A stretch of 50,326 nucleotides of DNA from a virus (lineage: Duplodnaviria; Caudoviricetes). Below, in pieces: positions 23-50,326 of the stretch. Each line of letters begins with the position of its first letter. Positions within the stretch are counted from its first letter, which is position 1. The translations under genes were made by a program, and so were the position numbers. The stretch covers positions 1 to 50,326 of IMG/VR virus record IMGVR_UViG_3300027893_000005. One strand, written 5' to 3'. The notes beneath the pieces are model-generated. The model searched no databases, was not told the origin of the DNA, and saw nothing but the letters and a program-made list of their open reading frames with translations.

Positions 23-238
23 CTACTTGATGACACCGGCATCAATCGCCTGGACGATGGTCAGCATAATGGCCTTCAACTCGATTAGGCCGTTGACGTT
101 CGCCTCGACAAGGTTGACGCTGTTGCCATCGGTCTCGATCACGATACGCCGCGTGGGGGCTACCCTCTTGGCCTTCAACTCAGTAACACCTTCAGGTAGC
201 CCCTGCGACTGACTCTTCTCTTTGGCTCGTCTAGCCAT
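23..238 (-). CDS. Small hypothetical late protein (71 aa)
   Basis: ATG at 238 preceded by AAGGAGG; co-oriented in the structural operon. The ORF-track start at 421 overlaps the upstream gene. Confidence 0.75.
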   Translation of the reverse strand: MARRAKEKSQSQGLPEGVTELKAKRVAPTRRIVIETDGNSVNLVEANVNGLIELKAIMLTIVQAIDAGVIK

Positions 239-267
239 CTCCCCTACCTCCTTATACCCCCTGCGGC

Positions 268-1671: not shown

Positions 1672-2907
1672 CTAGGAGGACTGGCTGTAGTTCATGACCT
1701 TCGCCATCGTGACGGGGTTCTTGATCTTGGCGGTGTAGTCACCGTAGACGTACCGCTGGAAGAAGTCACCCGTCCGAGCCGGGTTCTCACCGGTGTGCAG
1801 CCGACCGAGGCCAGCCATGTGACCCATGCTCACTTGGTCAGGCTGAAGGAACAGCATGACTCCGGGCGGCATGTTGTTGTCGGACAGGAACTGAACCTGA
1901 CCGATAACAGTGTCCATGCGCTGGACGATCAGACCAACCTCGTTCTCCTCGCGGGCCAGCCGAACGCTGGGCTCGAAGAAGGAGTTGATCTTGCGGTGTC
2001 CCCAGTAGTCGCACAGAATGGTGGTCGGCGCGTTCTCCTCCCCCACGATCTCAGCGACCTGCTGAAGCACGTCGTTGATGTCCTTGAGGGTGAGAGGGTT
2101 GCCAGCCTTGTCGGTCTCTACGACGTTGGCGTCGTAGCTGGAGTCCACGTACTCCAGAAGACCGCCGAACATGGAGGGGTCAGCGGTGCCCGTACCGACG
2201 TTCCGGCGACCGAGCAGCAGGCCCATCTCCAGGGACACCACGGCCCGCTTGAGAGCCTTGGCAACCTGCTCGTCGAAGTCCTGCCCGACACCACCCTGGC
2301 CGTAGCGGTTGATCCCCTCGTTGCGGAAGGTGCTCGACACGCTGTAGGCGATGATGGTCGGGTAGTTGTACTTGACGGCCTTCAGGCTGGTCAGGATGTC
2401 CGTCCAGGTCTGGTTCTCCGCGTGGGCGAAGCCAGCCACCCGGAACTTGGTGCCACTGACATAGTTAGTGCCAGGGTCGCTTGTCGGCCCGAAACCGCGC
2501 ACGACAGTCAGAGCGTCGGCAGAAGCCTGCGCCGTCACGAGCAGAAGCTCGCGGGCGTAGGTCGCGCCGTTGTCCTCGTCGTCCACGATCTCAATGACCG
2601 TGCCCTTCGGGTAGAGGTGAGCCTTGCCAGCGATGGGGAACGTCTGAACCGTGGTGTTGAAAGCACCAGAGATCACGTCCGCCCGGCGGTACAGGTCGTC
2701 CTCAACCCACTCGATCTTGCCAGCGTTGAACTCGAATCCGTCGAGCCCGCCCACCAGCTTGATGAGCTTCAGGGACTTGTAGTCGCTCACGTCAACGACC
2801 AGATCGTCAACGAAGCGAATGTTGAGAGAGGCAGCCTCATGCGGGTCGGTCGGGTATCCGGAAGGAATACCACCGAGACGCCGGGTGCCCGTTCCGTAAC
2901 CGGCCAT
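1672..2907 (-). CDS. Major capsid protein (HK97 fold, SU10/DUF5309-like)
   Basis: 411 aa after the scaffold; motifs EWVEDDL, LEMGLLLG..MFGGLL, LTLKDINDVLQ, YVYGDYTAKIKNP resemble this family. Confidence 0.85.
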   Translation of the reverse strand: MAGYGTGTRRLGGIPSGYPTDPHEAASLNIRFVDDLVVDVSDYKSLKLIKLVGGLDGFEFNAGKIEWVEDDLYRRADVISGAFNTTVQTFPIAGKAHLYPKGTVIEIVDDEDNGATYARELLLVTAQASADALTVVRGFGPTSDPGTNYVSGTKFRVAGFAHAENQTWTDILTSLKAVKYNYPTIIAYSVSSTFRNEGINRYGQGGVGQDFDEQVAKALKRAVVSLEMGLLLGRRNVGTGTADPSMFGGLLEYVDSSYDANVVETDKAGNPLTLKDINDVLQQVAEIVGEENAPTTILCDYWGHRKINSFFEPSVRLAREENEVGLIVQRMDTVIGQVQFLSDNNMPPGVMLFLQPDQVSMGHMAGLGRLHTGENPARTGDFFQRYVYGDYTAKIKNPVTMAKVMNYSQSS

Positions 2908-3741: not shown

Positions 3742-4203
3742 CTATTCGGTTGTTAGCGCTGCGTCCGAGTAGCGGCGCTCTGAAAGCTGCGCGAATCGAA
3801 GCCCGCGCAGCGCCAATTCTTCTTCTGATGGCCGAGAAGCTCTCGGCTTTATCAGCCCAGCAAATTCGATGACCGACCTGGCCTTGTCCTGCTTCACCTT
3901 GAGATGAGGAAGAATGTGACGCAGGAATCGAATTCCCTCCGTCTTGGCCAGTTGCCACAAGTAGAATGGTTCAGGCCCAGACCTTGAGTATATTCTACCA
4001 CCCCACCGATTCTGCAACCAGTGCAGCGGGGCCGGGTCTTTCTGCCCAATCCCGACAGTGATTGAGTACCTGACTGAATAGCCTGGCCTCTTCCCTGGCT
4101 GGCAGACAACGCTGACCCAGCCCTCACCGTCGAAGAATCCGGCAGCATAGGCCCTGTCGGTCTTATTAAGGTACTTGCTCTGTCGCTTGAAGCGCCTGAT
4201 CAC
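3742..4203 (-). mobile_element. Free-standing single-motif LAGLIDADG homing endonuclease
   Basis: YAAGFFDGEG motif, then the I-CreI-like pattern IGQKD..L..LQ..WGG..ILPHLKVKQDKA; lower GC than neighbours; probable GTG start at 4203 after GAGG. Confidence 0.9.
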
Positions 4204-7200
4204 TGTACCTCTTCTCGATGGAGTATTCGAGTCGCTCGGCTGGAGGGAACCCCACACCGGGGATCGCCAAGTCCCAGCGCCTCTCATCTCCGACTTTCAA
4301 CTGCTCCAAGGTTACCACAGGGAGTCCGAGAGTGTCAAGTATCTGGTTGAACTCGTCCAGCACAGAGTAGATGTAGTCCAGCCGGGCGACCCCATCCAAA
4401 GTGTAGTAGGTCTCACGAATCTCCATGAGTCGGCCGTAGGCAGCGGCAGCCTCGGAGGTAGTGAACCCTACCGGCTCATTACCGAAGAAACGTTCCAGAA
4501 GCGGGTGAGTCTCCCACCAATCCTCCTGTAGCGCCCGCCTCATCTTCGTGGGAACGCTGGTAAGCTCACCAATGGCCAGGTAGTATTCCATCTCCTGGCC
4601 AGCCTGCTTGTACAGTTCCTGCACCGCAGAGGGCGGCTGCTTCCCACGGTTGAGGAAGAGATTGAAGTCATACCGGGACACCAGGCGCTTGCCCTCTTCC
4701 AGAAGCAGGGCCTGATCCTTGTCCCGGCGCTCGATGATTCCGGGAATATCTCGCGTGCGATTTTTTCTGGTCGCTTCATTAAGCTCGTAGCTGGCCTGGA
4801 TCGCCCTGGCGTAGTGCTTGACCGCCAACTCGAACTGGGCAGTGGCACTCATGCGACCGGGCGGTAGGTCGAGGAGGAAGTTCTGCCGGGCCTCGTCGTA
4901 CTGCTCCCTGGCAGCGGTGACCTGCTCATCGGTGGCAGCCTCCAGCGTGACGCCCTTGGGCAGGAAGTCCTCGATGCGGATGTTGTAGTAGTCGTTCCGC
5001 AGCGTCATGAGTGCGCGAGTGAACGGGGGGTGAGAGGCAGAGGGAGTCAGATCAACGTCAGCGTACCGGGCGTAGACCTGGGACACCTCATCCTGGTACT
5101 TCTTGATGACTTGGGCCTGCTCCTGCTCGAACAGGTCGCGGTAGGTGCGACCCACCTTGGTGTTGTAGAACTCTTCCTTCTCCCGGATCGCGGCCAGGGC
5201 CTCGTTCACCGGGGCCAGTTCCCGGTCGCGGGCCTCCAAAGCATCGATCAGGTCGTGCCAGAACAGGGTCTTGTGAAGCTCGGCAGTGCGCTCCTCCGGC
5301 CCAGCAAGACCAGCCAGGGCCACCCGGCGCACCTGGTACTCAGGGAACCGCTCGTAGAACTCCTCAAGCTGGCCACGAGCAGCATAGTCGCGGTACACAG
5401 GATCGAGCGCCCGCATCATCTGCTCACCTTCCGGGTAAAGCTGGATGGGAGAGAACACCCAGGAGGACATGAACCGGATGCCAGCCTCCTTCGAGGCAAG
5501 CTCGCGGGCCTCCTCCCACAGAGGGCCGGACTTGGTATCCATCGCGGCCAGGTAATCGCGGAGCAGTTCCTTGGTCTGCTCAGGGCCAATCTCCGCAGCC
5601 TTCCGGGTGTAGAGCCCGGCCAACATGCGGTCGATACGATAGGTGTCCCACTGGTCGTCTGGAATACCGATCAGGCGCTGGAGCTTGTTCAGCGGCAGCC
5701 CAGAGCCCCCGATAAGCTGCCCCATGTCATCATCGGTGAGCCAGTCCGGTAGCTCAACGTCGGCACCGTTCAGGAAGGCCATCACGCCCATCTGAGCAGT
5801 CGTTCCAGGAAGACCAAGGGGCAGAGCACGCGGCCAGTTGCGGTTCAGCCACTCGTCCCGCTCCAGGAGGCCAACCATGCTTCCTGCAATCGGGACGAAA
5901 GGATGAACAGCCGGGCCATTGTTGGACATCCAGTCCAGGATGCGCCCGGCGACGGTGGTCTGGCGGCTCTCGAAGCTCCAGTCCTGCGCCCACTGCATGG
6001 TAGGGAACAGCATAGGGATCGGATTGAAGAAGACCTTGGTAGCCGGGCCGTAAGTGGATGCCATCATGTCGCCCAGGAAAGGCACGGGCAACTCGAAGTC
6101 GCCCTCGAAACGTTGGGGGATGTCGGTGGTCATCTCTTGCATCATGTCCCAGCCAAGGGCAACAGAGGCCACGGCACCAGGATTGGAGGACGTGCGCTGA
6201 GCCCACCGCCACATCGACCGGGTGGGCCAGAAGTGATAGGGGAACACCCACTGGAGCCACTTGTCGATCCCGTACTGGCGGGAGTAGTCAAGCATCGTCC
6301 AGTCGGCAGCGGCGCGTCCGGCATTGATGGAAGTAAGCTGCAAGTCCTTGTAGTCACCACGGAGACCGCCGATCCAGTCAATGGCCTGTTGGCGCAAGTG
6401 GACGGGGACACCCTCTGGCGGCTGGGTGAGCATGTTTAGCATCTTGGGCTCGGCCCAGTCCAAGAACTCCATCGCCCAGCGGTTCTCGCCGGTGATGGCC
6501 TCAGCGGTCACAGGCATCTCGTACATGCCCATGTTGTACTCGCGCGGGCGAGGGGCCAGGCCCATCAGGTCACGCTCAGTCCGCACCTCCTGGTTGATCC
6601 ATTCATGGATGCGGCGGCGTGTCGGCCCCATTAGCTCCGCCCGCTCGTAATAGCGAATGTCCTCCCCGGCCTCCAGCGCCATGCGGAGAGCGCGGTCGCG
6701 GGCTCGCAGGGAGTCCATACGCACATCGCGGATCACGCGGAAGCTGGGCAGAAGGTTGGGGTTGAACTGGGTAATGAGGGACTCCAGGCTCTCCATGTTC
6801 AGTTCAAGCTCCCGCAGGCGGGTCTTCTCATATTCGCGCCACAGGCGGTCGATGCCCTTTTCGCCCCCCTGGTGAGCAGCGAAGATGCGGGAGCGATCAT
6901 GGCGCAAGCGCTCGTACATGGCCCTGGTGCGGCCCAGGTACTCGTCGGCCTGTTCGCGCGGAACGCCGTGGGCCAGCAACCAACGGTCAGTCATCTCGAC
7001 GCGGGTGCGGCCGAGGGCATCGTCGGCCACTTCAATGCTATAAACGTTCTCGCCGGTAGAGCCCTGTGCCTTGCGAGCAGCGCGGATACGCTGGTCAAGG
7101 TCAGCGAACTCGTCCTCCAGGCGGGCGACCTCTTCGGGGTCGGTGACCCGGCCCTCCTGGATAATGTTCTTGATCTCCCGGCGGCGGGCAGTAAGCTCGG

Positions 7201-17298: not shown

Positions 17299-17372
17299 GG
17301 GCGCTTAGTTTAACGGAAGAACGCTGCGCTCCAAATGCAGTAGCGGGGGTTCGATCCCTTCAGCGCCCGCCA
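17299..17372 (+). tRNA. trnW: tRNA-Trp(CCA)
   Basis: Acceptor GGGCGCT/AGCGCCC, anticodon arm CTGCG-CT-CCA-AA-TGCAG, TTCGA T-loop, G73, encoded CCA. Confidence 0.95.
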
Positions 17373-17375
17373 AGG

Positions 17376-17450
17376 TGCAGGGTCGTCTAGCGGTAGGACA
17401 CCTGGCTCTGAACCAGGAGATCGGAGGTTCGAATCCTCCCCCTGCATCCA
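17376..17450 (+). tRNA. trnQ: tRNA-Gln(CUG)
   Basis: Acceptor TGCAGGG/CCCTGCA (U1-A72), anticodon arm CCTGG-CT-CTG-AA-CCAGG, GGTTCGAATCC, encoded CCA. Confidence 0.95.
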
Positions 17451-25744: not shown

Positions 25745-25961
25745 GATTAGCCTGGGCACGCCCATGACTCCGGACGGGCTCAGCGTCCTGTGTCGGAGGG
25801 TCTGGTCAGATGGGATGCTTGGCCCCATCAAGCTGTTCTACCTGACGCTGAGAAGCGGCAGCCCCTACTTTGACAGGGAGTGGCCACCATGCAGGCTGGG
25901 CCTGGTCATCGTTAGCGTGGCAGCGGCCGCTATCGAGGAGGAGTTGAATGACAAGTTCTGA
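25722..25961 (+). CDS. Hypothetical protein (79 aa)
   Basis: GAGGAGG RBS. Confidence 0.55.
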   Translation: MVTGEILEISLGTPMTPDGLSVLCRRVWSDGMLGPIKLFYLTLRSGSPYFDREWPPCRLGLVIVSVAAAAIEEELNDKF

Positions 25962-27762: not shown

Positions 27763-28558
27763 GATGCCGGGCAGCTTGCTCATCTTCAGCCCCCGGCCCG
27801 GTATTACCGTCACCGGAGCGTCCGGTGCCTGCGTCGAGTTCGAGACTCCACCCAACGAGGGACTGATCATCATGGTCACGCCCATCGATCCTCTCTGCGT
27901 GCTCGTCCTTCTGGACAACTGGCCCGACAACCCCGGCATCGCCATCCACCAGCACCCGCACCCTGCCCCCTTCGGTGCCGTGTGGGACTTGCAGCACAAC
28001 CTGACGCCGCAAGCCATATCCGGGAATCCTACCCGCTTCCAGCCCGTCGAGGAGGTGGCGCTGGTAGGAGCCCCCAACGGGGCCGTGCTGCTTATCAACG
28101 ACTGCGACCAACCCTCCTCGATCACGGACTACGTGCGCAGTCACCCAGCCTACGAGCCATTGCCACTCGCTGAGCAGGCATTCCGGGCCTACGCTACGGC
28201 CGCTCTGGAAGCTGGCGTTGCAGCCATCCCTATCCACTTTGGCATTGACAATATCGCCAACCTCTTCGGTGCCGGTGTCTCCTTTGCCCACCGCTACCCG
28301 ACCATCGTCAAGTGGGCGCTCAGGCGGACGCAGTACCCCTATGTTGTCTGGGATGGCAGCCAGGGGTTCATGAAGGAGAAGCTAGACAACCTTGAGAGCG
28401 TCCTGACCGAGCACGCCGGAGAGTGGGAGGGCGTGCGCGTTGAGGGCGAGGAGGCGGCAGGGCTGGAGGCAGAGTTGCCGGACTTCCTCAAGGGTCAGCT
28501 TCACGACCTACTGCGCGACTTGAACCTGGGCGAGGGGGACGATGGCCCGGTATCTTGA
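27743..28558 (+). CDS. Hypothetical protein (271 aa)
   Basis: AAGGAGG RBS; directly upstream of the polymerase. Confidence 0.6.
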   Translation: MIGTYHRMPGSLLIFSPRPGITVTGASGACVEFETPPNEGLIIMVTPIDPLCVLVLLDNWPDNPGIAIHQHPHPAPFGAVWDLQHNLTPQAISGNPTRFQPVEEVALVGAPNGAVLLINDCDQPSSITDYVRSHPAYEPLPLAEQAFRAYATAALEAGVAAIPIHFGIDNIANLFGAGVSFAHRYPTIVKWALRRTQYPYVVWDGSQGFMKEKLDNLESVLTEHAGEWEGVRVEGEEAAGLEAELPDFLKGQLHDLLRDLNLGEGDDGPVS

Positions 28559-30647
28559 TGTCCCCCATAGGTGGAGACAGACCAGCGAGCCCGAACTGTC
28601 CACAGAGGGCACGTTCATTGTGCTCTCAGACGGGCGGGTCAAGACCCTCCTGCACCTGATTGAGCACGGTAGGCCGGGCGACGTGATGAGCGTGCACCCC
28701 GACCGTCTGGACTTTTGGTTGTGTCTGCCCGACTACGTGACGTTGCGCACCTACCCCGATGGCGAGGAGATTCGCAAGCGCCTGAGCCCGTGGGACTGGG
28801 CCTGCAAACTGCTTGGCGTTCCTTCCCAATACAGGAAGAAGAAGCCCAGCGAGCGGTCTAAGTTCCTCTATGCCTGGAATGGTGCCTTCGAGTTGGCCGT
28901 ACAGGTCGGGACAGCTTATGAGAAGCGCAACGCCCGCCATGCTGCCACCACCGATGAGCCCATACCCTTGGACAAGATGAGGGCTGCCCCCCGCCTGGCC
29001 CTGGACACTGAGGTGGACGTTATCAAGAAGAACAAGCCCATGCCCACCCGCGATCCCATCCTGGGTGTGTCCATTGGGTGGGAGGACGGCGAGTGCTGGA
29101 TACCGACCGAGCAGATCATCGATCCGCGCACCGGTGGCTGGACTAACCTGGCTCACCAGTTGGCCAGCATCCTCTACGATCCTGCCAAGACTCTTATCGG
29201 GCACCATGCCAAGTTCGACGAGATCGTCATGCACCGCCTGGGATTCCACGAGTTCAAGTTCGACCATGACACCATGCTCCTGTCCTACATGCACGGTGGC
29301 CGCTACCCGGCCGGTCTGAAGAAGCTCATCTATGCCCTGCGCAGACGCCCGGCGCAGGAGATTGGGCCACTCATCGACCGGTACGGTCGGGTCTCCAACA
29401 TTCCCAAGGCTACCCTCATCCCTTACGCCAAGGCCGACGCTCGCAATACCTACGATGCCGACGAGGACTTGGAGAAGCTGCCCATTGACCCCATGTATGA
29501 CGAGATCGAGATGCCCATCTCCCGCCTCCTCTGCTCAATGGAGGAGCAGGGTTGGCAGGTTGACAATAGCCGTCTCGACCAGGTAGAATCCGAACTAGAG
29601 AAAGCGATGGAGGCGGCAGCGGAGAAGCTCGCGCCCTACGGCATCACGTCTCCCACCAAGAACCAGGAGGTAGCTGCCTTCTTCATCGGGGAGGGATTCG
29701 ACCTGCCCATGACGCAGATTGGCTACAGCGTGGACAAGGACGTGCTGCGTACTATCGATCATCCCGCTGTCGAGCATCTCCTGGACTACCGTGAGGCCCA
29801 CAAGCGAGCCACCAACTGGGTGCGTGCCATGCGCCGGACTCAGGACGAGCGTGGCTACATCCATCCCAACTTCAGACAGGCCCCTGTCAGTGGGCGTCTG
29901 TCCTGCTCTAATCCCAACGTTCAGAACTACACCTACGACATTCGATCCTGCCTAGTGCCTGACCCCGGCCAGTGGCTGGTCGCAGCAGACATGTCCCAGT
30001 TCGAGATGCGTATCATGGCCAAGGCTTCGGGCGACCCCACCCTTATCCGGGAGTATCTGGATAACGTAGACGTGCACGCCCTTAACCAGGCAGCGCTCCA
30101 TTTGCCCACCCGTCGTGCCGCCAAGGATACGATGTACGGCATCGGCTACGGTCTGGGTGAGGCGACGCTGGCTGCGAACCTGACCAAGAAGGGTGAGCCC
30201 ACCACCATCCCGGAAGCCAGGGCCTTCATGAATTCCATCTACGGCAAGTACAACCGTCTCCGGCCCTGGAAGAAGGAGGAGCTTGCCCGCTTCCGGGCCA
30301 ATGGCTGCATCGCCCTGACTATGGCTGGCCGTCCCCGCTGGCTGCCAGAGCTTCTCTTCGATGACGTTGAGCTTCGGGGCCATGCCGAGCGTGCGGCCGT
30401 CAACCACATCATTCAGGGCACAGCGGCCGACCTGATGAAGATCGGCATGCTTATCCTGGAGGAGTACCTGCCTCGACATGGTGCCCGCCAATTGGCTCAG
30501 GTTCATGACGAGTTTGTGATCAGCACGCCCAACCCCTTCGCTACTTGGGACGCGCTGATGGTAGTGATGGAAGAGTTTCAGCGCTGGCTCGACCCCGTGC
30601 CGGTGGGCATTGATGTGCTGGTTGGGCTACACTGGGGCTTCAAGTGA
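28542..30647 (+). CDS. polA: DNA polymerase family A with 3'-5' exonuclease
   Basis: Exo I LDTE, Exo II HAKFD, Exo III YAKAD; GRLS..PNVQN; motif A DMSQFEMR, motif B RRAAKDTMYG..YG (Tyr at the 762-equivalent site), motif C VHDE. Confidence 0.95.
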   Translation: MARYLDVPHRWRQTSEPELSTEGTFIVLSDGRVKTLLHLIEHGRPGDVMSVHPDRLDFWLCLPDYVTLRTYPDGEEIRKRLSPWDWACKLLGVPSQYRKKKPSERSKFLYAWNGAFELAVQVGTAYEKRNARHAATTDEPIPLDKMRAAPRLALDTEVDVIKKNKPMPTRDPILGVSIGWEDGECWIPTEQIIDPRTGGWTNLAHQLASILYDPAKTLIGHHAKFDEIVMHRLGFHEFKFDHDTMLLSYMHGGRYPAGLKKLIYALRRRPAQEIGPLIDRYGRVSNIPKATLIPYAKADARNTYDADEDLEKLPIDPMYDEIEMPISRLLCSMEEQGWQVDNSRLDQVESELEKAMEAAAEKLAPYGITSPTKNQEVAAFFIGEGFDLPMTQIGYSVDKDVLRTIDHPAVEHLLDYREAHKRATNWVRAMRRTQDERGYIHPNFRQAPVSGRLSCSNPNVQNYTYDIRSCLVPDPGQWLVAADMSQFEMRIMAKASGDPTLIREYLDNVDVHALNQAALHLPTRRAAKDTMYGIGYGLGEATLAANLTKKGEPTTIPEARAFMNSIYGKYNRLRPWKKEELARFRANGCIALTMAGRPRWLPELLFDDVELRGHAERAAVNHIIQGTAADLMKIGMLILEEYLPRHGARQLAQVHDEFVISTPNPFATWDALMVVMEEFQRWLDPVPVGIDVLVGLHWGFK

Positions 30648-33755: not shown

Positions 33756-34638
33756 AAGGAAGGCTGCTGAAGAGGGTGATGAGTTCAGCTACATCGCCCG
33801 CGTGCAGACCTTCCAAGAGGTAGACCTGACGCCGGACGAGCGGGCTGATTATGGTGCCAAGGAGGGCACCGACCAGTTCCAGCTTCTCATCTCTCTGGAG
33901 GGCGTCAGCGTCGAGTGGGTTGGGGACGAAGGCAACCTTCGCACCTTCTGGGCGAAGCGCACCCAGCCCGATGGCCAATCCAAGAAGGGCCGGAACAACA
34001 AGTCGTACCAGATACTCCAGTACCTGATTGCCCCGACTGACCCTGACGACGCAGAGGCGGAGGGCTTCGTGGACAAGGCCGGTAATCCTATCACCGGTCT
34101 GGGCTACGACGACGACGCCCCCGACTTCCCTCAGTGCCTTGAGGGGAAGATCGTCAAGGTAGCTCACCGTTGGGTGACGTTCGGGCGCGACCCGGAGACC
34201 AAGGAGCCCATGCGCTCCATGATCCCGGCGATCCTGGAGATACTGGACGACGACTACGTGCACGAGGGCCAGGTGCCGAAGATCACCTACAAGGGTCGGC
34301 GCACTTCTTCCCGCGAGGAGGGGGAGCCTACCGGCGGTACGGGTGAGGCCAAGGCACCGGAAGAGGTCGAGGCTGCCGATCCGGAGGAGTTCTTCGCGGC
34401 TATCGATGGCAAGCAGCTTCATCTCCAGTCCCTGCACGAGGCCGTCAAGGACAACCCCGGTCTTCAGGTGGAGCCCTACCGCACACTCTACGCTTCCAAG
34501 GCCGGGCGCAAGGCCCTCGTCGATTCCGGCTGCATCAGTGTGGATGACAGCACCCCGCCGGTCATCACGGTCGAGGAGGCCCTTGACCTTGAGGCCCTAG
34601 AGGAGCTTGCTGACTCCGCACGGAAGGCCAAGAAGTAG
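33736..34638 (+). CDS. Acidic replication protein, possible ssDNA-binding protein (300 aa)
   Basis: Very strong RBS; acidic; between helicase and exonuclease. Confidence 0.5.
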   Translation: MPLRFNTRKAAEEGDEFSYIARVQTFQEVDLTPDERADYGAKEGTDQFQLLISLEGVSVEWVGDEGNLRTFWAKRTQPDGQSKKGRNNKSYQILQYLIAPTDPDDAEAEGFVDKAGNPITGLGYDDDAPDFPQCLEGKIVKVAHRWVTFGRDPETKEPMRSMIPAILEILDDDYVHEGQVPKITYKGRRTSSREEGEPTGGTGEAKAPEEVEAADPEEFFAAIDGKQLHLQSLHEAVKDNPGLQVEPYRTLYASKAGRKALVDSGCISVDDSTPPVITVEEALDLEALEELADSARKAKK

Positions 34639-34727
34639 CTTCGGCTCTAGGTTGGTAGGGGCAGGCCGGTCATAGGCGTTTGGCGGAAGGCTGACCTGCC
34701 CCACCTGGAGTGCAGCTAGGAGGCTAT

Positions 34728-34763
34728 AAGGAGGTGTATCACTATGCCGCTACGGTTCAACAC
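34728..34763 (+). repeat. 36-bp direct repeat, copy 2
   Basis: Identical to 33720-33755. Confidence 0.95.
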
Positions 34764-43356: not shown

Positions 43357-43546
43357 CGTCCTGAACGTAGACCTGTCGCTGCTGCTCCAGATGATCGGGG
43401 AGCGAGAGGTACAGATTGCCCTATTGCAGCAGCAGGTGGCTGGGCTGACGAAGCAGGTGGAGACCATGAGCAAGATCAGGGCTGGCCGGACTAAACAGCG
43501 TAAAGAGGAATCTTGTAGTCCACCCCATTCAACTCCACCCGAATAG
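43340..43546 (+). CDS. Small coiled-coil protein (68 aa)
   Basis: GAGGTG RBS; its 3' end overlaps the convergent tail spike gene by 56 bp. Confidence 0.55.
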   Translation: MSPAVNVLNVDLSLLLQMIGEREVQIALLQQQVAGLTKQVETMSKIRAGRTKQRKEESCSPPHSTPPE

Positions 43547-46148
43547 AGGCATCCGAGTCAATTGTCGAGGTGGCGATGGCCCCTTCGTCCTGGCCGTCGA
43601 AGTCGATGAAGGGCTCGTCAACGTCATCCTGCACAAGGTTGAGGCAGGCCCCCACACCGGTAGCGCTATCCTGGTGAACCTTCATCACCGGGTTCGTGGC
43701 GCTTGCGACATTCCTCGTCACGCGCATCCCGATGTAGTTCCCGTTGGGATCAAACTCGCCCGTGCCCCGGTCGGCCCTGACCATGTAGGTCAGGCCGGAG
43801 TAGTTCCCGGAGTACCCACGCACGATGGCCCCATTGATGATCTCTTGCCAGGCCGGGGTCTGGCCCATGTTCCAGTTGAAGTATTTCACCCCTGTGCTTG
43901 CCTTGAAGAGGAGCATCTGCTCACCAGCATCGGCCGCGCCGCTGATCTGGGCAACCTGCTGAGCCCAGTTCCCGGCGAAGAAGCGGAAGTGGGTGGCATT
44001 GATCAGGTCAAGCGCCGGGATCGCGGTGCTGAAGTTCAGCTTGTCAGTCCCGGCCAGGTTGCGGATCACGAAGGTCTCGCCGTCAGCCACCTTGGGAGAC
44101 AACTTCAGCGGGCCGTCAGGGGTCAAGAAGTTGTTGACCACCCGGCTGCTGTTGCCTACCAGGGAGTACGGAGTCGTGACACTGTTTTGGGTGTTGCAGT
44201 TGGTGTAGTTGTTCCAGATACCGGAGCCGCCGGTCTCCTCAAAGCCCACGTCGCAGAAGTGGGGCTGGACGTGGAAGACGAAGGTGCCGGACACGTTGTC
44301 GATCTTGATCCCGCTCACCGCAGCCACGTTGTTAGCGTAGTTGCCATCCACCTGGAGGTCGCGGATGCTACAGTCGGCCGCTGTGACGTTGATGATGGCA
44401 GCCAGTTCCGCACCGTTGATCTGCTTGATGATGGTCACACCATCTCCGGAGCCGATCAAGTCCTTGCCCCAATCAGAGACGACAACCATCCCGTCGATGT
44501 TGTAGGTGCCAGGCATGAGAAGTACGCGCACGCGGGAGGCTGAGTTGAGGGCCAGGTTGATCTCCTCCTGGTCGCTGGTGCCGTCGCACACGTAGTCGGC
44601 CCACGCCTTGGCCTGGGTAGTGGAGTTGTCAGCGGCCACGATCTTGTCGAAGAAGCGCTGCGGGGCTCCACCAGCACCGGACGGATAGTTGGCATCGATG
44701 ACGTTGCCGTTCACGTTGTTGAGTAGGTTGGTCAGGTCATCGTGGTCGCGGACAGAGTTGCCCACGATGACGGTGTAGCTTGTGGTAGTGTGACCGTAGA
44801 TGCCGTAGGTGGTGGCAGCACCGGCCTTGCCACGCAGGACGTTGCTGGTCACGGAGCCATAGTCCCACCCGCCGATGTAAACGGAGTGGGTGTCCCCGCC
44901 GTTCTTGACGATGTTGCCGTCGATGACGAAGTGCTCACCACCGCCAGAGATGGGCGTCTCCAGTTGGATACCATAGGACTCGAAACCGGCGATCCGACAG
45001 TCCACGATCTGGATGTCGTTGCAATACCCGGCCACCGCGATGCCCACTCTCGGAGTAGACTGACCGCTGTTGCAGGAGAGGCGACAGTCACTGATCTCGA
45101 TGCCAAGGCCGATGCCATCACAGTCAATCCCGACACCATCCTGCACATCCAGGATACAGCCGTCGATGGTTACTTCGGTGGTGCCCCCGATCAGGATTCC
45201 CTTGGTAGCGACACCAGTGGCCACAATCCGGCAGTTGCTCAACTGTACGTCGTTCGCGGCTCCTATCCGGAGGGCATAGGTACTTCCACCACCGAAGCGG
45301 CAGTTGCTGATCCTGGCCCCAGTGATGGCCGAAACGCCACTGATGTAGAGGCCCGTCCCCGCGCAATAGAATTTGCAGCCATCCACCAGGAGATCAGTTA
45401 CCTCTAGCTGACCGGCCTGGATCACGGTGGACTCCATCACAATGTCGCGCAGGGTAAACTTACTGGCACCATTAGAGTCACTCATATCAATACCCATAGC
45501 GCCAGAGACCATGCGCAAGTCCAGGAAGTCGAACTGGGTGGGAATGCCACCGGCCACCGAGTCAATGTAGATAAGGGTCTGGGAGCCAGCGTGATCAACC
45601 GTCATGTGCTCCATGCGGAACCGCGTGACCCCGCCCGTGCCAACAGCATTTATCGTCACAGTGGGGCTAGCAGCCGTACCCTGGAGCAGGACTTCGCCTC
45701 GGCCTGCTCCCACGAGCCACAAGTCGGCAGTCTTGCCAGCAATGGTCAGGTTCTCCTGGTACGTCCCGGAGCATATCCAGACCAGACCACCGGTGATGCC
45801 CAGTGAGTTGATCGCGGCCTGGATGGTTGTGTGCGTCCCTATCCCAGGCGTGGGGTGCACGAAGGCGGCGTAGCACATCTTGCCACCACCGCCCATGCCG
45901 GAGGGAACCATGACCTGGATACGGATGTCGTCGCGGGTGATCCTGGGCCGAGCGTAGTACATGCCAGGGGCCAGGCCCGTGAAGGTGGCGGTGCCTGAGT
46001 CGTCCGTGGTCTCCACCCCGGCAACGTGCTGGATAGGGTCGCGGGCAGAGGTGGTGAACAGGTTGACATCAATAGCCTCGACTTCCACCCCGATCAGGGG
46101 GTTGCCGTGCTTGTCGGTCACGTTGCACTTGAAGACGAAGTTGCTCAT
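43491..46148 (-). CDS. Tail spike / receptor-binding protein with parallel beta-helix (pectate-lyase-like) domains
   Basis: TTIQAAIN..GTYQENLTI and DQEEINLALN..PGTY cap motifs, each followed by beta-helix repeats; N-terminal Ig-like segment. Confidence 0.85.
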   Translation of the reverse strand: MSNFVFKCNVTDKHGNPLIGVEVEAIDVNLFTTSARDPIQHVAGVETTDDSGTATFTGLAPGMYYARPRITRDDIRIQVMVPSGMGGGGKMCYAAFVHPTPGIGTHTTIQAAINSLGITGGLVWICSGTYQENLTIAGKTADLWLVGAGRGEVLLQGTAASPTVTINAVGTGGVTRFRMEHMTVDHAGSQTLIYIDSVAGGIPTQFDFLDLRMVSGAMGIDMSDSNGASKFTLRDIVMESTVIQAGQLEVTDLLVDGCKFYCAGTGLYISGVSAITGARISNCRFGGGSTYALRIGAANDVQLSNCRIVATGVATKGILIGGTTEVTIDGCILDVQDGVGIDCDGIGLGIEISDCRLSCNSGQSTPRVGIAVAGYCNDIQIVDCRIAGFESYGIQLETPISGGGEHFVIDGNIVKNGGDTHSVYIGGWDYGSVTSNVLRGKAGAATTYGIYGHTTTSYTVIVGNSVRDHDDLTNLLNNVNGNVIDANYPSGAGGAPQRFFDKIVAADNSTTQAKAWADYVCDGTSDQEEINLALNSASRVRVLLMPGTYNIDGMVVVSDWGKDLIGSGDGVTIIKQINGAELAAIINVTAADCSIRDLQVDGNYANNVAAVSGIKIDNVSGTFVFHVQPHFCDVGFEETGGSGIWNNYTNCNTQNSVTTPYSLVGNSSRVVNNFLTPDGPLKLSPKVADGETFVIRNLAGTDKLNFSTAIPALDLINATHFRFFAGNWAQQVAQISGAADAGEQMLLFKASTGVKYFNWNMGQTPAWQEIINGAIVRGYSGNYSGLTYMVRADRGTGEFDPNGNYIGMRVTRNVASATNPVMKVHQDSATGVGACLNLVQDDVDEPFIDFDGQDEGAIATSTIDSDASIRVELNGVDYKIPLYAV

Positions 46149-46672: not shown

Positions 46673-48651
46673 TACCAGTCCACCGGCTCCATGACCTGGA
46701 CAGCCACGCGGCCCCGGCGACGGCTGGAGACGATCTCCTGCTCCGAGGTAGGCATGGATACCAGGTCAACCTTGGTCGCGGTCACGTCGGCGTAGGAGAA
46801 GGCGACCAGGCGCTTCGTGTTCCACAGTACCCTCAACTGGGCGTACAGGGTCTCGAAGTTGGCCACGACCCCCTCGTCGATGTTGCGGGACACGTCCACT
46901 GTGAACAGGTAGCTCATGCGCAGGCCAGGCTTCTTGCGAAAGACGAAGGTCATGGGCAGTGGCTGTGGGGTGCTGGTATCGTCACCGGTGTCTCCGTACA
47001 GGGTGAAACGGAACTTGATCGTGGTGAACTCCTGACCCTCGACGACCGTACCAGCGACAGCGCCGGTGGCGTTGTGCTTGAAGTTGAAGTGCGTCTGCGT
47101 CCCGTTGAAGGTGCCCAGGGTGTACCAGGTACTGTCGTCGCCATCGACCGCGTACTGCACCTTGCAGGAGGTGTTGGTGTCGAAGTCCCCAGCGCACCAC
47201 ATTTGGAAGGCGGCTCCCACAAGCTCGCGGAACCCGCCGTCCAGCCAGGGTGTCTCCAGCTTGTAGCCCCCAGCATCGTTCTCGAAGTGGCCGGTGCCCA
47301 CCAGGGGGTTGTCGGAGCCCTCGTTGAAGTCAATGGAGAAAGCGGTGGGAGTCTGAGAGAACTGCCAGATGCGCTTCTGGGGAGCAGCCAGGCCCCAGTT
47401 GCTGTGACTCTTGTCAGTGACCAGGAGCCCGGCGGGGACTCCGGTCTGCCTCTTTCCGATGGGATGCCAGGTGGCTCCCCGGTACTCCCAAATCCACATG
47501 TAGGTTCCATCCGTGATCTGGGCATAGAGGTAGCCACCGATGTCGCCCCAGAGGGCATCGACGTACCAAGCCTCACCGTCGAGGAAGCCCTGGTCGCGCA
47601 CGATGTCGATGGGACGGACGACTCCGGGATCGCCGGGCACGTAGTGGACGATGTGGAGCCCGTCAGTGAGCACCAGACCGTCCTGCCACACGCACCCTGC
47701 CCGGATGTCAGAGATGTCCAAAGGGACGGGATAATACCTGCGTGCGTAGAAGTCGAGCACGTACAGCTTGTTGGCCATGTAGTAGGGAGCAAGTTCACCC
47801 CACGGTGAACGGGCCGGGCCAATGAACCTCCCGATGGTAGAGTTGGGGAGTCGCCAGATGGGATCGGGCTGAGCCCCGCCGGAGTCCTTGACCAAGGTGT
47901 CACCGTCCAGCGAAACGTAAACGTGGCCAGGGCGTACCCAGATACCGGCAGCAATCTCGAAGGTGGCATTGGCCAGAACGAGCAGCTTGTTGTCATACTC
48001 CATGAGCGTTCTGGCCGGGAAGCTCTCGGTGAGCGCAGTCCATGTGCCTCCGCCCCCAGACGGGGTAAAATGGCCCAGGCCATTGTTGCCGGGAGCGGCC
48101 GTGGTATCCAGGTTGCAGACGAATAGGCGAGGTACGCCAGACTGCCCCAGCGTTCCCTCGACTGGCTGGTACTGATCCATGTCCTGGAGCTTTTGCCCGC
48201 TTGCGGGCTCGCCCTCGTCTACCCAGGCGGAGCCATCGGCGGCTGCTGAGTAAAGGTGGGTGCCAGATAGGAAGACAATGCGAACGGCTGCACCCATTAC
48301 CTCGTAGTGCATGGCTGTGCGCCGCCTACGGGCGAAGACGTTGCCAGCGCCGCCCGCGATGCCAGTACCGGCCGTAGCCTTGAGCGGAAGGGTGGCCTGC
48401 CTGGGGATGCGCGTGTCTACGCCGGTGGTGTGGGCAAACCGGGCCAAGTCCTCGCGGGAGAGGCCGTGAGAAATGCCAGGCCCGCCGGAAAAGTCCTCAA
48501 AGACGTTGAAGCCCGCGCCCTGGCGGGCGTCATAGGACTCTTCACCAATTCGGATGTTGGCAGCAAAGTCGCTGACCGGCTGCGATACTACCTGCCCACG
48601 GACGTAATACTCCGTACCTCCGAGCTTTACCTTGTTGATTTTGGAGGCCAC
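46672..48651 (-). CDS. Tail nozzle / tubular protein B-like
   Basis: 659 aa, beta-rich, after the adaptor genes; LETPWLDGG motif. Confidence 0.7.
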   Translation of the reverse strand: MASKINKVKLGGTEYYVRGQVVSQPVSDFAANIRIGEESYDARQGAGFNVFEDFSGGPGISHGLSREDLARFAHTTGVDTRIPRQATLPLKATAGTGIAGGAGNVFARRRRTAMHYEVMGAAVRIVFLSGTHLYSAAADGSAWVDEGEPASGQKLQDMDQYQPVEGTLGQSGVPRLFVCNLDTTAAPGNNGLGHFTPSGGGGTWTALTESFPARTLMEYDNKLLVLANATFEIAAGIWVRPGHVYVSLDGDTLVKDSGGAQPDPIWRLPNSTIGRFIGPARSPWGELAPYYMANKLYVLDFYARRYYPVPLDISDIRAGCVWQDGLVLTDGLHIVHYVPGDPGVVRPIDIVRDQGFLDGEAWYVDALWGDIGGYLYAQITDGTYMWIWEYRGATWHPIGKRQTGVPAGLLVTDKSHSNWGLAAPQKRIWQFSQTPTAFSIDFNEGSDNPLVGTGHFENDAGGYKLETPWLDGGFRELVGAAFQMWCAGDFDTNTSCKVQYAVDGDDSTWYTLGTFNGTQTHFNFKHNATGAVAGTVVEGQEFTTIKFRFTLYGDTGDDTSTPQPLPMTFVFRKKPGLRMSYLFTVDVSRNIDEGVVANFETLYAQLRVLWNTKRLVAFSYADVTATKVDLVSMPTSEQEIVSSRRRGRVAVQVMEPVDW

Positions 48652-48655
48652 GGGA

Positions 48656-49222
48656 CTAGTTCCTCACGCGCTGGGCATCTGGAAATGGCAAGAACGACGA
48701 CCGCTGCCTGGCATCCTCGGCCAGGCGGTGAGCCGACGCCTCGCGCGGGCTCCCAAGGTTGCCCAGGAGGATGGCGGCAGCCTTGTTGACCACATAGGCG
48801 TCGGAGATGTAGAGCACGTCGTCCCCGGCGGACAGGCTATCCTGGAACGCCTGGCCCTCGATCCGCAGCTTCCTGGAATCGAGCGGAGTCCACATCCTCT
48901 CATCGAACACTAGCTTAGGGCCAGCAATGATTCGGTATTGATAAGGCCAAACGATGTTAGTGGTAGGGAAGTCCCCGTCAGCGTCAGCCATTGTGACGCG
49001 GTAGATGTAATCCATGCCAACCCCAGAGATGTCGTACTCGTAGGTGTCCTCCGAGAGCGTAACGGTTGTCTCGTCCGGGTCAACGTGGTACGGCATCTCA
49101 GTCCGCACCTCGTCAATGGCGTCATTGATGGCCTGCTCAAGCTCCTCGTCAGTGACTTGGGGAGCGAGCCCCTTGCCAACGCGGGCCATGACCCGGCGCT
49201 TGATGGTGTCGAGCATCTGCAT
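48656..49222 (-). CDS. Head-tail adaptor protein
   Basis: N-terminal helices DEELEQAINDAI, then TLSEDTYEYD; size and synteny. Confidence 0.7.
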   Translation of the reverse strand: MQMLDTIKRRVMARVGKGLAPQVTDEELEQAINDAIDEVRTEMPYHVDPDETTVTLSEDTYEYDISGVGMDYIYRVTMADADGDFPTTNIVWPYQYRIIAGPKLVFDERMWTPLDSRKLRIEGQAFQDSLSAGDDVLYISDAYVVNKAAAILLGNLGSPREASAHRLAEDARQRSSFLPFPDAQRVRN

Positions 49223-49569
49223 TACTTCTTATCCTCCCTGTGCCACTGATGGAACCTCCACCACCAGTGACCGGCAACGGCGGTCGCAATGGCAGCGGGC
49301 CAGCCGTGCCAGAAGACCGACTCCCAAGTCTCAAAGCTGGGCCGGTGGGAGAAGAGTCCGGCCCAGCCCCAGCAGTGGCCACTCTCGGCCACATGATTGC
49401 GCAAGGCAATACCGAGACCACCGAACCCGATGGTCGCGCCCCAGAAGAACAGGACAAGCTCCAGGTAGGGTCTCCAGGGAGACCTGCGTAGCCACAGGAG
49501 GCTGGCCACCAGCAGGGCCACGATCCCGGCCGCTGTCGGAGTCATCAGCCTGCGCCTCCATTTCCCCAT
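49222..49569 (-). CDS. Three-TM membrane protein, holin candidate
   Basis: Three hydrophobic Trp-rich segments, charged termini; TAATG coupling on both sides. Confidence 0.55.
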   Translation of the reverse strand: MGKWRRRLMTPTAAGIVALLVASLLWLRRSPWRPYLELVLFFWGATIGFGGLGIALRNHVAESGHCWGWAGLFSHRPSFETWESVFWHGWPAAIATAVAGHWWWRFHQWHREDKK

Positions 49570-50222
49570 TACTGAGCCCTCCCAGGCACGATCCTCGCAC
49601 CCGGAGTCGGGCGGTACTTGGGCGGAATGGTGGGCACTAGCTCGTCGCGCAACCGGCGCTCCGCCTTCTGGTCAAGCCGGGTCTCAGCGGACTCTAGCTT
49701 GTGCCAGTCGGACAGATCAGAAGCAGTGCCACCGAGGGCCGCATGTAGAGCGCTCAGGCACGCCTGGATCAACCAGCCGGGCTCGATCTGGATGATGTCG
49801 GTATCGGCCGTGATGGTTGCCTTGTTAGCACCGGAGGCAGGCTTCACGGTGTTGGCCTCCCATCCAGCAATGACCGGGTTCTGGCTCGTGGTAGGGGTAA
49901 AGAACGGGGGCCGGAAGCAAAGCTGGGGCTCAGTGGTGCCACCGGATACACCGGCCCGGATGTCCCAGGCGTAGTCAGGAAGCTGGCGACCGTTGGCGTC
50001 CCAAACGGCCTGGATGTACAGGAACTTGTCAGGCACGTCGTACTCGCTGGTGCCGGTGGTCATGGAGATAGTGGCGGGCTCTACGACCACCACCAGGTCG
50101 CCGTACACGGCAAGCAAGGCAGCGTTCATGGCTGCCATGAGAACCTCGTCTGCGACAGATGCGGAGGTCTCCCCGATCAGGTGGCGAACTATGTCGTCCA
50201 TCAAGGACTTCCACGTAATCAT
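49569..50222 (-). CDS. Head-tail adaptor-like protein (paralogue of 48656..49222)
   Basis: DEVLMAAMNAAL..SMTTGTSEYDVP parallels the other adaptor. Confidence 0.65.
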   Translation of the reverse strand: MITWKSLMDDIVRHLIGETSASVADEVLMAAMNAALLAVYGDLVVVVEPATISMTTGTSEYDVPDKFLYIQAVWDANGRQLPDYAWDIRAGVSGGTTEPQLCFRPPFFTPTTSQNPVIAGWEANTVKPASGANKATITADTDIIQIEPGWLIQACLSALHAALGGTASDLSDWHKLESAETRLDQKAERRLRDELVPTIPPKYRPTPGARIVPGRAQ

Positions 50223-50232
50223 GACTCACCTC

Positions 50233-50299
50233 TGGTGGAGGAGGGCGGGAGTCTCACCCGCCGTTTCCCGACCGGAGCCGGGGCCTCATACACTCCCCC
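50233..50299 (-). ncRNA. 67-nt tRNA-like element lacking D-stem and anticodon loop
   Basis: GGGGGAG/CUCCUCC acceptor with G3-U70, A73 and CCA; GGCGGG-UGAGACU-CCCGCC T-arm; CCCGGC-UCCG-GUCGGG hairpin. Confidence 0.7.
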
Positions 50300-50326
50300 A
50301 CAAAAGATTAGACAGTGCCCACTTCC

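Follow-up and report, generated by a model that had tools for sequence, protein, structure and literature searches.

A tRNA-like element with an alanine identity set and no anticodon before the head-tail adaptor gene of an uncultured SU10-type phage: a candidate functional RNA

Introduction

Why should a phage carry, directly in front of its head-tail adaptor gene, a sequence that folds much like a tRNA, ends in an encoded CCA and has the elements by which alanine tRNAs are recognized, without having an anticodon? The question is raised by IMG/VR record IMGVR_UViG_3300027893_000005 (Duplodnaviria; Caudoviricetes), which is classed as linear and 99% complete and whose entire length, 50,326 bp, is the window analyzed here. 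On its minus strand, close to its end, lies a 67-nt element that an earlier reading, made from the sequence alone, had described as an anticodon-less mini-tRNA inside the structural operon. Three roles had been offered for it: a message-less mimic of the tRNA-like domain of transfer-messenger RNA (tmRNA), a decoy for toxins that attack tRNA ends, or an RNase P signal separating head from tail mRNAs.

We conclude that the element is very probably a conserved functional RNA, and comparison of its sequence with others identifies it as a strand-specific one. Its best reading, from the same comparisons, would be that of a diverged relative, or an analogue, of the message-less tmRNAs of phage DS6A and some organelles. 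Its function may be action in trans on the alanine-tRNA/tmRNA machinery or punctuation in cis of the late mRNA, and it is between these two that most of the evidence below has to be weighed.

Results

Structure of the element

The minus-strand sequence from 50299 to 50233 agrees base for base with that given by the sequence-only reading, and the three-way fold drawn there is the one that RNAfold returns both as minimum free energy (MFE) structure and as centroid (-35.0 kcal/mol). The tRNA-like architecture claimed for it (parts in Table 1) is real, except that the stack is 7+6 and not the canonical 7+5: the T-like stem of 6 bp sits directly on the 7-bp acceptor, making 13 bp in all. A D stem is absent, a 4-nt loop stands where the anticodon loop would be, AAAC (minus strand) joins the middle arm to the T-like arm, and the interval between the acceptor 5' strand and the T arm is 30 nt only. 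The alanine identity set is nonetheless there as reported, in the form of G3.U70, A73 and the CCA end. From this CCA to the ATG of the adaptor gene, at 50222, the distance is 10 nt. The covariance-type model R1, which was made from the three sequences of the window's own family (see below), scores the element at 88.1 bits and finds it to be the sole copy in the window.

Does such a shape exceed what chance would produce? Taken alone, the bare shape does not. The fold has a z-score of -1.59, and 18 of 200 shuffled sequences fold at least equally well. A descriptor made up of a 7-bp stem (at most one G.U), an abutting hairpin of 6 bp with a 7-nt loop, and NCCA was matched 36 times (0.18 per window) in 200 random windows generated by a first-order Markov model so as to keep the dinucleotide composition, and twice when G3.U70 and A73 were added (0.01 per window). 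This 7/6 descriptor matches the element; a canonical 7/5 descriptor matches only the phage's two real tRNAs. The significance of the element thus comes from its relatives and not from the fold alone.

Conservation beside the adaptor gene

Among metagenomic sequences the adaptor has 18 homologues of 57-79% identity, several with a precomputed PF24175 assignment, and an alignment-based scan of JGI metagenomes yielded 12 loci. In eight of them the sequence reaches 399 nt or more beyond the adaptor start on its upstream side. Of these, L011 and L013 (L-numbers denote metagenomic or viral loci) have the element at the same place; in the other six (L003-L008) a stop codon leads directly to the ribosome-binding site (RBS). 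The window's own element, WIN, and those of L011 and L013 together form what we call family W.

Within W the element consists of two almost invariant blocks around a variable arm. The 5' block, comprising U(-1), GGGGGAG and the linker start UGUA, is identical at 12 of 12 positions, and the 3' block, which begins with the C preceding the T stem and extends through ACC, at 28 of 30. Both differences fall in the T loop, which reads UGCAACU in L011, and the T stem is identical in all three. The 3' end is ACCA in L011 and ACCG in L013, and in both, as in WIN, the last base of this end (CCG in L013) is 10 nt from the adaptor ATG. By comparison, the adaptor genes of the three are 66-71% identical in DNA, pairwise, and the third positions of their conserved four-fold-type codons 45-57%. 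That blocks remain invariant beside synonymous sites so close to saturation argues for strong selection at the nucleotide level. The middle arm differs among the three in both sequence and length (L011 is 26 nt longer) while its helix is kept, and all three fold into the same three-way junction as MFE and centroid structure, with z-scores of -1.6 (WIN), -3.4 (L011) and -2.6 (L013). A UUCG hairpin like that of WIN can also be drawn in L011, with a G-C to A-U double change, at 6.9 kcal/mol above the L011 MFE.

The maximum-likelihood tree made from the N-terminal parts of the adaptors (all 10 rows kept, midpoint-rooted merely for display) has one clade, L005-L008, without the element and another, well supported, that contains WIN, L013 and L011 with it and the pair L003/L004 without it. 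One gain and one loss would be the simplest history. Since six of the eight relatives lack the element, including L003/L004 of the same clade, it must be dispensable. Where present it follows three different upstream genes and always abuts the RBS of the adaptor.

Could it be a small protein, and not an RNA, that these blocks encode? The frame 50219..50326 (-) has 35 codons and is open at its 5' end; it becomes the 39-aa peptide of the sequence-only reading only if it is joined across the record ends to the ATG at 12-10, and that peptide would then be coupled to the adaptor by an ATGA overlap. There is an AGGAG 7 nt before that ATG, the frame is open into 50326-50219, and in each of the three sequences this frame translates the 3' block as GKRRV[R/Q]LPPSST. 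However, the 5' block translates as GGVY in the window but as GEC in L013 and L011, and the L011 frame containing the 3' block opens only after the 5' block, while the frame across the 5' block runs out in a different register. The peptide was rejected because no single frame covers both blocks across the relatives. The 40 invariant positions, moreover, include no synonymous changes in a neighborhood where synonymous sites are near saturation, and the ATGA is the Met-Ile start of the adaptor, found also in relatives without the element. Whether relatives keep the peptide or the base pairs had been named beforehand as the discriminating observation, and it is the base pairs that they keep: the frames differ over the 5' block, and the middle arm refolds. 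This favors an RNA over a peptide.

Related elements in other viral contigs

Is the element confined to this family? When IMG/VR was scanned for the T arm, two loop positions being left free, 62 loci matched, and in 18 of these the 7 nt after the T arm pair with an upstream GGGGCCG to form a stem with G3.U70, followed by ACCA. They fall into group A (14 loci, 72 nt, before a gene for an FmdB-like zinc-ribbon protein) and group B (4 loci, 97 nt, with the small terminase gene on one side and the large on the other), and W, A and B, the three lineages, agree in having the element on the strand of the genes around it. Neither ARAGORN nor Rfam made a call on any group A or B locus tested. R1 scores descend from 86-96 bits in W to 49-54 in group A and 37-40 in group B, and T-arm-only sites score about 19-20.

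In an alignment of ten distinct sequences from the three lineages 148 of 148 cells pair, a figure to be read with the facts that the alignment is fitted to R1, that the search pattern fixed the T arm of groups A and B, and that each group counts as one evolutionary event. G3.U70 and A73 are kept in all ten. On the opposite strand the conserved G.U would be a C.A mismatch, and its retention therefore identifies the RNA strand. Pairs 5-68 and 6-67 change on both sides (G-C and A-U in W, C-G and C-G in groups A and B); pairs 1-4 (G1-C72, G2-C71, G3.U70, G4-C69) and A73 never change across the lineages.

Two wider scans of IMG/VR extended the series. The first, for GGGGCCG and CGGCTCCACCA 45-75 nt apart, gave at least 114 loci. 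Among the matches listed, ARAGORN called 51 as tRNAs, 49 of them tRNA-Ala, and left 63 (58 distinct sequences) uncalled. By their printed folds these 58, again among the matches listed, include about 15 canonical message-less tmRNAs and the window-type elements L107, L133/L141 and L155; some 40 were set aside as chance matches in GC-rich coding DNA with no T arm abutting the acceptor. The T stem covaries, with G-C to A-U changes in L107 and in L155, and as the change in L155 affects the outermost, sixth pair, that pair is real. The second scan used a pattern specific for the 7/6 geometry and gave 24 loci, 20 of them 7/6-type elements. The remaining four, L192-L195, were excluded since nothing placed as in a tRNA could serve as acceptor 5' strand (in L193 a 7-mer 104 nt upstream is complementary, but no tRNA-like fold results). 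Common to all members are a pyrimidine (U or C) at -1, GGGG at positions 1-4 with U70, an N-G-Y-A linker start, A-C before the 6-bp T stem, and an encoded ACCA, which is ACCG in L013 alone. The next start codon follows CCA after 10-11 nt in W, A and B; in L133 and L155 the spacing is 23 and 13 nt, respectively.

Two 3'-end patterns had no match in the genomes of 185,579 prokaryotic species, at one genome each, which argues that these elements are neither host tRNA or tmRNA genes nor copies of attachment (att) sites. Further copies of W in IMG/VR were sought with a 19-mer of the 3' block and with both blocks and a gap between them, and none was found; searches of IMG/VR for single-protein loci and with the adaptor alignment added no loci either. 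In GenBank phages, blastn with W gave only a 25-nt match in Bacillus phage Eldridge (E = 0.7), tblastn with the adaptor gave nothing, and groups A and B had no match.

Three structural ideas about these families were abandoned. In group A, bases upstream of G1 might have paired with those preceding the T arm to form an additional helix; checked by hand in six distinct sequences of the group, it shows uncompensated changes in L060 and L073. A permuted tmRNA in group B had an RF04321 score of 16.7 bits (E = 0.12) and no ARAGORN call, and the downstream candidate for its 5' strand contains a mismatch whereas the upstream one pairs perfectly. A CCUC/GAGG hairpin sequestering the Shine-Dalgarno sequence in W cannot be a common feature, since the 3' strand is a different one in groups A and B.

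The T-arm hairpin also occurs by itself. GGCGGG-UGNNACU-CCCGCC without an acceptor, the loop being mostly UGAAACU, was seen in L022, L025, L028, L039, L046, L047, L051, L053, L055, L061, L063 and L068, which are unrelated and often AT-rich contigs; it is intergenic there and usually lies tens of bases before an RBS and ATG. It could be a recurrent motif of the T-loop type, a terminator, or a remnant of tRNA-like elements. Elsewhere the hairpin is nested in other stems: in stems of the type GGGGUGG...CCACCCC in group C (L017, L018, L020, L021, L027, L045, L057, L070, L072), and in other conserved stems in group D (L024, L036, L037, L050, L058, L064, L074) and group E (L038, L044, L056). These three groups have neither G3.U70 nor CCA, and the members tested gave nothing at Rfam gathering thresholds.

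Comparison with tRNA, tmRNA and other tRNA-like molecules

That standard finders would miss the element had been foreseen, and they do. In the window ARAGORN called only tRNA-Trp and tRNA-Gln, and no tmRNA, standard or permuted. Rfam, searched with 49900-50326 at E <= 10, returned only a Tymovirus tRNA-like match (12.6 bits, E = 4.1) and an unrelated one; at this threshold the element was matched neither by RF00005 (tRNA) nor by RF00023 (tmRNA). Yet RF00023 readily finds true message-less tmRNAs: it detects that of Mycobacterium phage DS6A, which we located at 28478-28560 (+) of JN698994 (43.2 bits, E = 6.6e-14), and six viral forms at 38.2-67.1 bits (Table 1), four of which are above the gathering cut-off. 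L094, L133 and L155 have no RF00023 match at E <= 1.

The element itself departs from both families in several respects. It does not form a cloverleaf with D and anticodon arms; it has the 7/6 geometry and the loop UGAGACU instead of a 5-bp T stem with a UUCRA-type loop; and the mRNA-like domain, resume codon and tag frame of a full tmRNA are absent. So are the signatures of the Rfam tmRNA consensus, the GGaUUCGAC-type D-loop analogue, the GGAC that precedes the T arm and the T loop UUCGA: where the consensus has the first two, the element has UGUAUGAGGC and, before its 6-bp T stem, AAAC. Partial resemblances do occur among its relatives, namely a GAUCGA linker in L133 and L155 and GGACGGG in group B, and this graded linker series, together with the shared architecture, hints at a connection with tmRNA. 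A second model, R2, made only from seven viral message-less tmRNAs, scores held-out true members at 39-68 bits and 7/6-type elements at 25-34 bits (default filters, with which WIN and L013 go unreported). With filters off, the window's element reaches 22.9 bits end to end, which lies within the 13-30 bits of ordinary tRNAs, and for this reason homology to tmRNA may be called plausible and not more.

The closest precedent is a phage one. In the tmRNA database papers, "Mycobacterium phage DS6A (TLD only)" is listed as a tmRNA, TLD being the tRNA-like domain, and it is stated that a molecule of this kind is a strong inhibitor of tmRNA whether or not it can be charged, possibly through titration of SmpB. 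Like the window's element, that of DS6A (about 83 nt) is phage-encoded, has no tag frame, combines a 7-bp acceptor with G3.U70 and a discriminator A, lacks a D stem and an anticodon, has a capped helix where the long P2 helix of tmRNA begins, and is intergenic on the coding strand. In contrast to the window's element it matches RF00023, and it has a 5-bp T stem, a UUCGAUU loop, a CGAC-type D-loop analogue and a CUA end, whereas the window's element has a 6-bp T stem, the loop UGAGACU, a shorter UGUA-type linker and an encoded CCA. The earlier proposal of a message-less tmRNA-domain mimic is therefore the best-supported direction, with DS6A as precedent, although RF00023 gives it no match. Message-less phage tmRNAs are thus already known; the 7/6-type variant is one that current models do not recognize.

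TLD-only tmRNAs of 65-82 nt are, in fact, frequent in IMG/VR contigs, and ARAGORN calls none of them. Besides the six in Table 1, further loci are L088, L160, L176, L184, L167, L150 and L094, the last with two adjacent R2 matches. In L173 the message-less tmRNA is 3 nt from a tRNA gene, and the same contig has a type II hammerhead ribozyme at 2716-2781(-) (38.3 bits); L155, which carries a 7/6-type element, has a group I intron at 5914-6130(+) (84.4 bits).

Reduced tmRNAs are also known from organelles. According to the sources, jakobid mitochondrial tmRNAs without an mRNA-like domain retain G.U at the third acceptor pair and A73, the 2025 update of the tmRNA database includes plastid tmRNAs of about 65 bp without a coding sequence, and the presumed role of reduced organellar tmRNAs is ribosome release only. 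The loss of the mRNA-like domain with retention of the third-pair G.U and A73 is what the element shares with them; they differ in being organellar, mostly two-piece (permuted) and detectable with dedicated tmRNA covariance models, and in co-occurring with SmpB, for which the phage, encoding none, would need that of its host. As for tRNA-Ala, the published identity set matches the pattern of pairs and A73 kept in the phage elements. The element shares G1-C72, G2-C71, G3.U70, G4-C69, A73 and CCA with tRNA-Ala and canonical tmRNA, and the GGGGCCG/CGGCUCC stem of groups A and B recurs in tRNA-Ala genes of viral contigs; the absence of D arm and anticodon, the stack of 13 and not 12 bp, and the non-canonical T loop set it apart.

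Plant-mitochondrial t-elements, finally, are tRNA-like folds at which mRNA ends are set by RNase P and RNase Z. As an acceptor/T fold between cistrons on the sense strand, the element is a t-element in form, and both are non-canonical acceptor and T arm folds embedded in mRNA precursors. However, t-elements have the canonical GGTTCRANYCC T-arm motif and no particular amino-acid identity set, and they are not described in phages. In a literature search that covered few subscription papers, no account came up of 7/6-type elements or of their occurrence in late operons. A catalogue of 10,006 viral candidate RNAs has been published (PMC10690425).

Genome context

The genome is that of an SU10-type podophage. 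Its structural genes are on the minus strand (Table 1), a family A DNA polymerase and a helicase are encoded on the plus strand, and the two canonical tRNA genes lie on the strand opposite to the element. The adaptor scores 26.4 bits against PF24175, whose cut-off is 27.

Since the element is 27 nt from the end of the record, it matters what this end is. Logan contigs of four DNA runs (X1-X4) continue beyond 50326: X1 and X2 each have one 49,722-nt contig reaching past it, X3 has a contig passing it and a separate one of 18,980 nt, and X4 has a 378-nt contig that reaches 132 nt beyond. X1, X2 and X3 may be source samples of the record. In L011 and L013 the element is in mid-contig. It follows that the record end is an assembly break and not a genome terminus. 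Most likely, then, the head genes at low coordinates precede the element on the same strand, with the 71-aa open reading frame (ORF) of Table 1 as its upstream neighbor if the record is circular or permuted. The earlier placement of the element inside the structural operon agrees with the shared strand and the gene order, and it rests, like the 39-aa peptide, on a presumed joining of the two record ends.

Some details of the assembly may be recorded here. In run X3 one contig breaks off and another begins on the two sides of 50228-50251, a stretch comprising the RBS and the 3' strands of the acceptor and of the T stem, and one differing letter is recorded within 50252-50326; the break may reflect strain variation inside the element or an assembly artefact. 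The X1 and X2 contigs are 604 nt shorter than the record, and an exact wrap would, by arithmetic, put the missing stretch at about 34130-34733, where there is no tandem repeat. No end repeats or tandem repeats that would explain the record ends were found. The 71-aa ORF contains a 13-nt exact direct repeat (70-82 and 169-181, plus strand, 99 nt apart), which is reflected on the minus strand in a recurring ELKA motif of the peptide.

In 48500-50326 there are no promoter-like sites and no terminator-like sites; the hairpin has no U tract after it, being followed by CUCCUCCACCA. A Pfam scan of the 40 longer ORFs found no integrase and no tRNA-related enzyme domain, and no phage-encoded SmpB was found, which means that any partner of the element would be the host's. 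Elsewhere in the genome, the LAGLIDADG ORF sits in the structural gene block and overlaps the start of a 1807-aa ORF. Domains of the Ogg-HhH, UDG superfamily and nucleoside 2-deoxyribosyltransferase types are clustered at 19149-19844, 25948-26571 and 26466-27413 (+), a base-excision/nucleoside-exchange cluster that may hint at modified DNA bases in this phage.

Table 1. Positions of the element, its parts and other features; positions are those of the window except in the last six lines, where they are those of the locus named.
Feature	Positions	Strand	Basis or remark
Whole tRNA-like element, 67 nt	50233..50299	-	G1 at 50299, CCA end at 50233
Acceptor 5' strand GGGGGAG	50293..50299	-	U(-1) at 50300; 7/7 pairing with 50237-50243
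Linker UGUAUGAGGC, 10 nt, in place of D arm	50283..50292	-	Unpaired in MFE fold
Middle arm, 6 bp, UCCG tetraloop, C-G closing pair	50267..50282	-	Occupies place of anticodon arm
T-like arm GGCGGG/CCCGCC, 6 bp, 7-nt loop UGAGACU	50244..50262	-	Sequence and fold
Acceptor 3' strand CUCCUCC	50237..50243	-	U70 at 50239 gives G3.U70
Discriminator A (50236) and encoded CCA (50235-50233)	50233..50236	-	Sequence
Shine-Dalgarno-like GAGGUG of adaptor gene	50227..50232	-	Sequence; immediately 3' of CCA
SU10-type head-tail adaptor, 217 aa, 3' of element	49569..50222	-	Pfam PF24175, E = 1.1e-05
Major capsid protein, SU10 type	1672..2907	-	PF17236, E = 2.4e-36; phrog_1328 major head protein, E = 5.6e-23
Beta-helix tail protein	43491..46148	-	Domain match
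71-aa ORF	23..238	-	No Pfam or PHROG match
181-aa ORF, LAGLIDADG homing-endonuclease domain	3742..4287	-	PF00961, E = 8e-05; 23.9 bits, cut-off 23.1
tRNA-Trp (CCA) and tRNA-Gln (CTG)	17299..17450	+	ARAGORN; 3 nt apart, normal T loops
L173, message-less tmRNA	154-233	-	RF00023, 67.1 bits
L091, message-less tmRNA	2135-2214	-	RF00023, 65.1 bits
L095, message-less tmRNA	187-266	-	RF00023, 54.5 bits
L086, message-less tmRNA	10494-10574	+	RF00023, 53.3 bits
L125, message-less tmRNA	558-633	+	RF00023, 46.0 bits
L090, message-less tmRNA	1045-1120	-	RF00023, 38.2 bits

Discussion

A major question arising from these observations is why phages of several lineages should keep the alanine identity set on a molecule without an anticodon. 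The reading that we prefer, to which we would give a probability of roughly 0.45, is that the element is a processed mimic of tRNA-Ala or tmRNA whose identity set serves a purpose in trans. In broader terms, it probably lets the phage engage the tRNA-processing or the ribosome-rescue machinery of its host.

How might this work? From gene order and shared strand, the element would be transcribed in the late structural message, with the head genes before it and the adaptor after it. Host enzymes of tRNA maturation may then recognize the acceptor/T stack and the ACCA; recognition by RNase P or other tRNA enzymes is likely. RNase P would cut between U(-1) and G1, splitting the head mRNA from the tail mRNA, and 3' trimming or CCA repair would leave an RNA of about 67 nt ending in CCA. 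By the known identity rules, the invariant pairs 1-4 and A73 could make this RNA a substrate or ligand of alanyl-tRNA synthetase (AlaRS); that it is in fact alanylated is possible, at rather less than even odds. Such an RNA might act in trans on factors of tmRNA and Ala-tRNA, that is, SmpB, EF-Tu or AlaRS, and the most plausible effect, by analogy with the DS6A-like molecule alone, would be that host trans-translation is damped or redirected late in infection. The entire chain, up to and including a role in ribosome rescue, is distinctly doubtful.

Several observations weigh against this reading. The comparative base is small (the window's family has three sequences, and all lineages together are about five), and to this are added the limits of the alignment set out above. 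The element is dispensable in most relatives, and with respect to tmRNA it lacks the consensus signatures, has no RF00023 match and scores no higher with R2 than ordinary tRNAs do. The 13-bp stack and the G at T-loop position 2 are non-canonical and might impair AlaRS, EF-Tu, SmpB or RNase P; full 3' maturation at the CCA would cut at the edge of the adaptor RBS, and Escherichia coli RNase E is reported to cut 1-3 nt after an encoded CCA; no SmpB of the phage's own was found, nor, among the 40 ORFs scanned, a tRNA-related enzyme; and the seven runs found to contain the sequence include no RNA run.

The strongest rival is a purely cis role like that of t-elements, in which the fold is a signal for mRNA cutting or stability and there is neither charging nor action in trans. 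The position suits this, as it does the earlier suggestion of an RNase P punctuation signal: an RNase P cut at G1 would part an abundant head mRNA from a low-copy tail mRNA, and the fold could stay behind to cap and protect the new 5' end, or to insulate the adaptor RBS and so keep it free. The element is always intercistronic on the coding strand, travels with the adaptor gene behind different upstream genes, and has its CCA at an almost constant distance from the next start codon in W, A and B as well as a pyrimidine at -1 in all members. Encoded CCA hinders RNase Z. According to the literature, an encoded RCCA aids RNase P, and t-elements set mRNA ends. However, the tight spacing may be plain genome compaction and is looser in L133 and L155, the canonical message-less tmRNAs of other phages are free-standing and beside tRNA genes, and one copy per genome does not make a general punctuation system. 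Above all, RNase P needs shape only, so that punctuation by itself leaves the invariance of G3.U70 and pairs 1-4 unexplained. That the pairs read by AlaRS, the G.U and A73 do not vary while pairs 5-6 covary tips the balance away from a purely cis signal, which we consider unlikely as the whole explanation.

Another possibility may be imagined, as a long shot: that these elements, alanine acceptors that lack an anticodon and have a 13-bp acceptor/T helix and a T loop of the UGNRA type, constitute an unrecognized class of phage RNA that diverged from tmRNA so as to avoid use in ribosome rescue. Excised from the late mRNA in bulk along with the capsid message, they would serve as sacrificial acceptor ends absorbing host abortive-infection toxins that act on tRNA CCA ends or aminoacyl-tRNAs, or as private alanyl carriers for a phage enzyme. 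The Mom reaction, which is reported to be Gly-tRNA-dependent, would be comparable to the latter.

The decoy role proposed earlier is related to this. Defence toxins that attack tRNA acceptor ends or aminoacyl-tRNA include CapRel/toxSAS, nucleotidyltransferases of the MenT type and acetyltransferase toxins, and a stable minihelix with an exposed ACCA, made in bulk with capsid mRNA and adjoining the highest-expressed late genes, might absorb them; it is consistent with this that the class was found in viral contigs and not in cellular genomes. No defence or anti-defence gene context was found, however, and a general CCA decoy would not need an alanine identity set, which leaves this role with a slim chance.

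Very improbable is a terminator, an attenuator or a DNA site (for packaging or recombination, or an att remnant) that merely resembles a tRNA. T7-like phages carry a terminator after the head genes, and the GC-rich hairpins of the element occupy just such a place; the same T-arm hairpin stands alone between genes in many unrelated viral contigs, and the record ends close by. Yet there is no terminator-like site and no U tract, the conserved G.U, the single-stranded linker and the ACCA are features of an RNA, and the continuing contigs, the absence of an integrase domain among the ORFs scanned and the lack of a host counterpart argue against a DNA site.

A chance structure or a decaying remnant without function, for which the z-score, the 0.18 matches per random window and the absence from six of eight relatives could be cited, is hardly credible when the blocks are invariant beside near-saturated synonymous sites, the variable arm is kept by compensatory change and the same design recurs in other phage lineages. 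To the 39-aa peptide, which would require a join of the record ends and is contradicted by the frames of the relatives, we give next to no credence at all.

What would the preferred reading mean for these phages? This variant class occurs in several uncultured phage lineages, and because ARAGORN and Rfam are both blind to 7/6-type elements it is invisible to current annotation. The 67-nt element is near to a minimal natural substrate for RNase P, the CCA-adding enzyme and AlaRS, and its natural extension of the stack by one pair may be useful for learning how these three enzymes measure a tRNA. If the cis role were the true one, the element would be a bacterial-virus counterpart of the punctuation by t-elements in plant mitochondria. 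If, on the other hand, RNAs of this kind undergo processing and charging, a small RNA acting in trans on the alanine-tRNA/tmRNA machinery would be present in many uncultured phages, and whether lytic phages manipulate ribosome rescue or the surveillance of tRNA ends late in infection would become a testable question.

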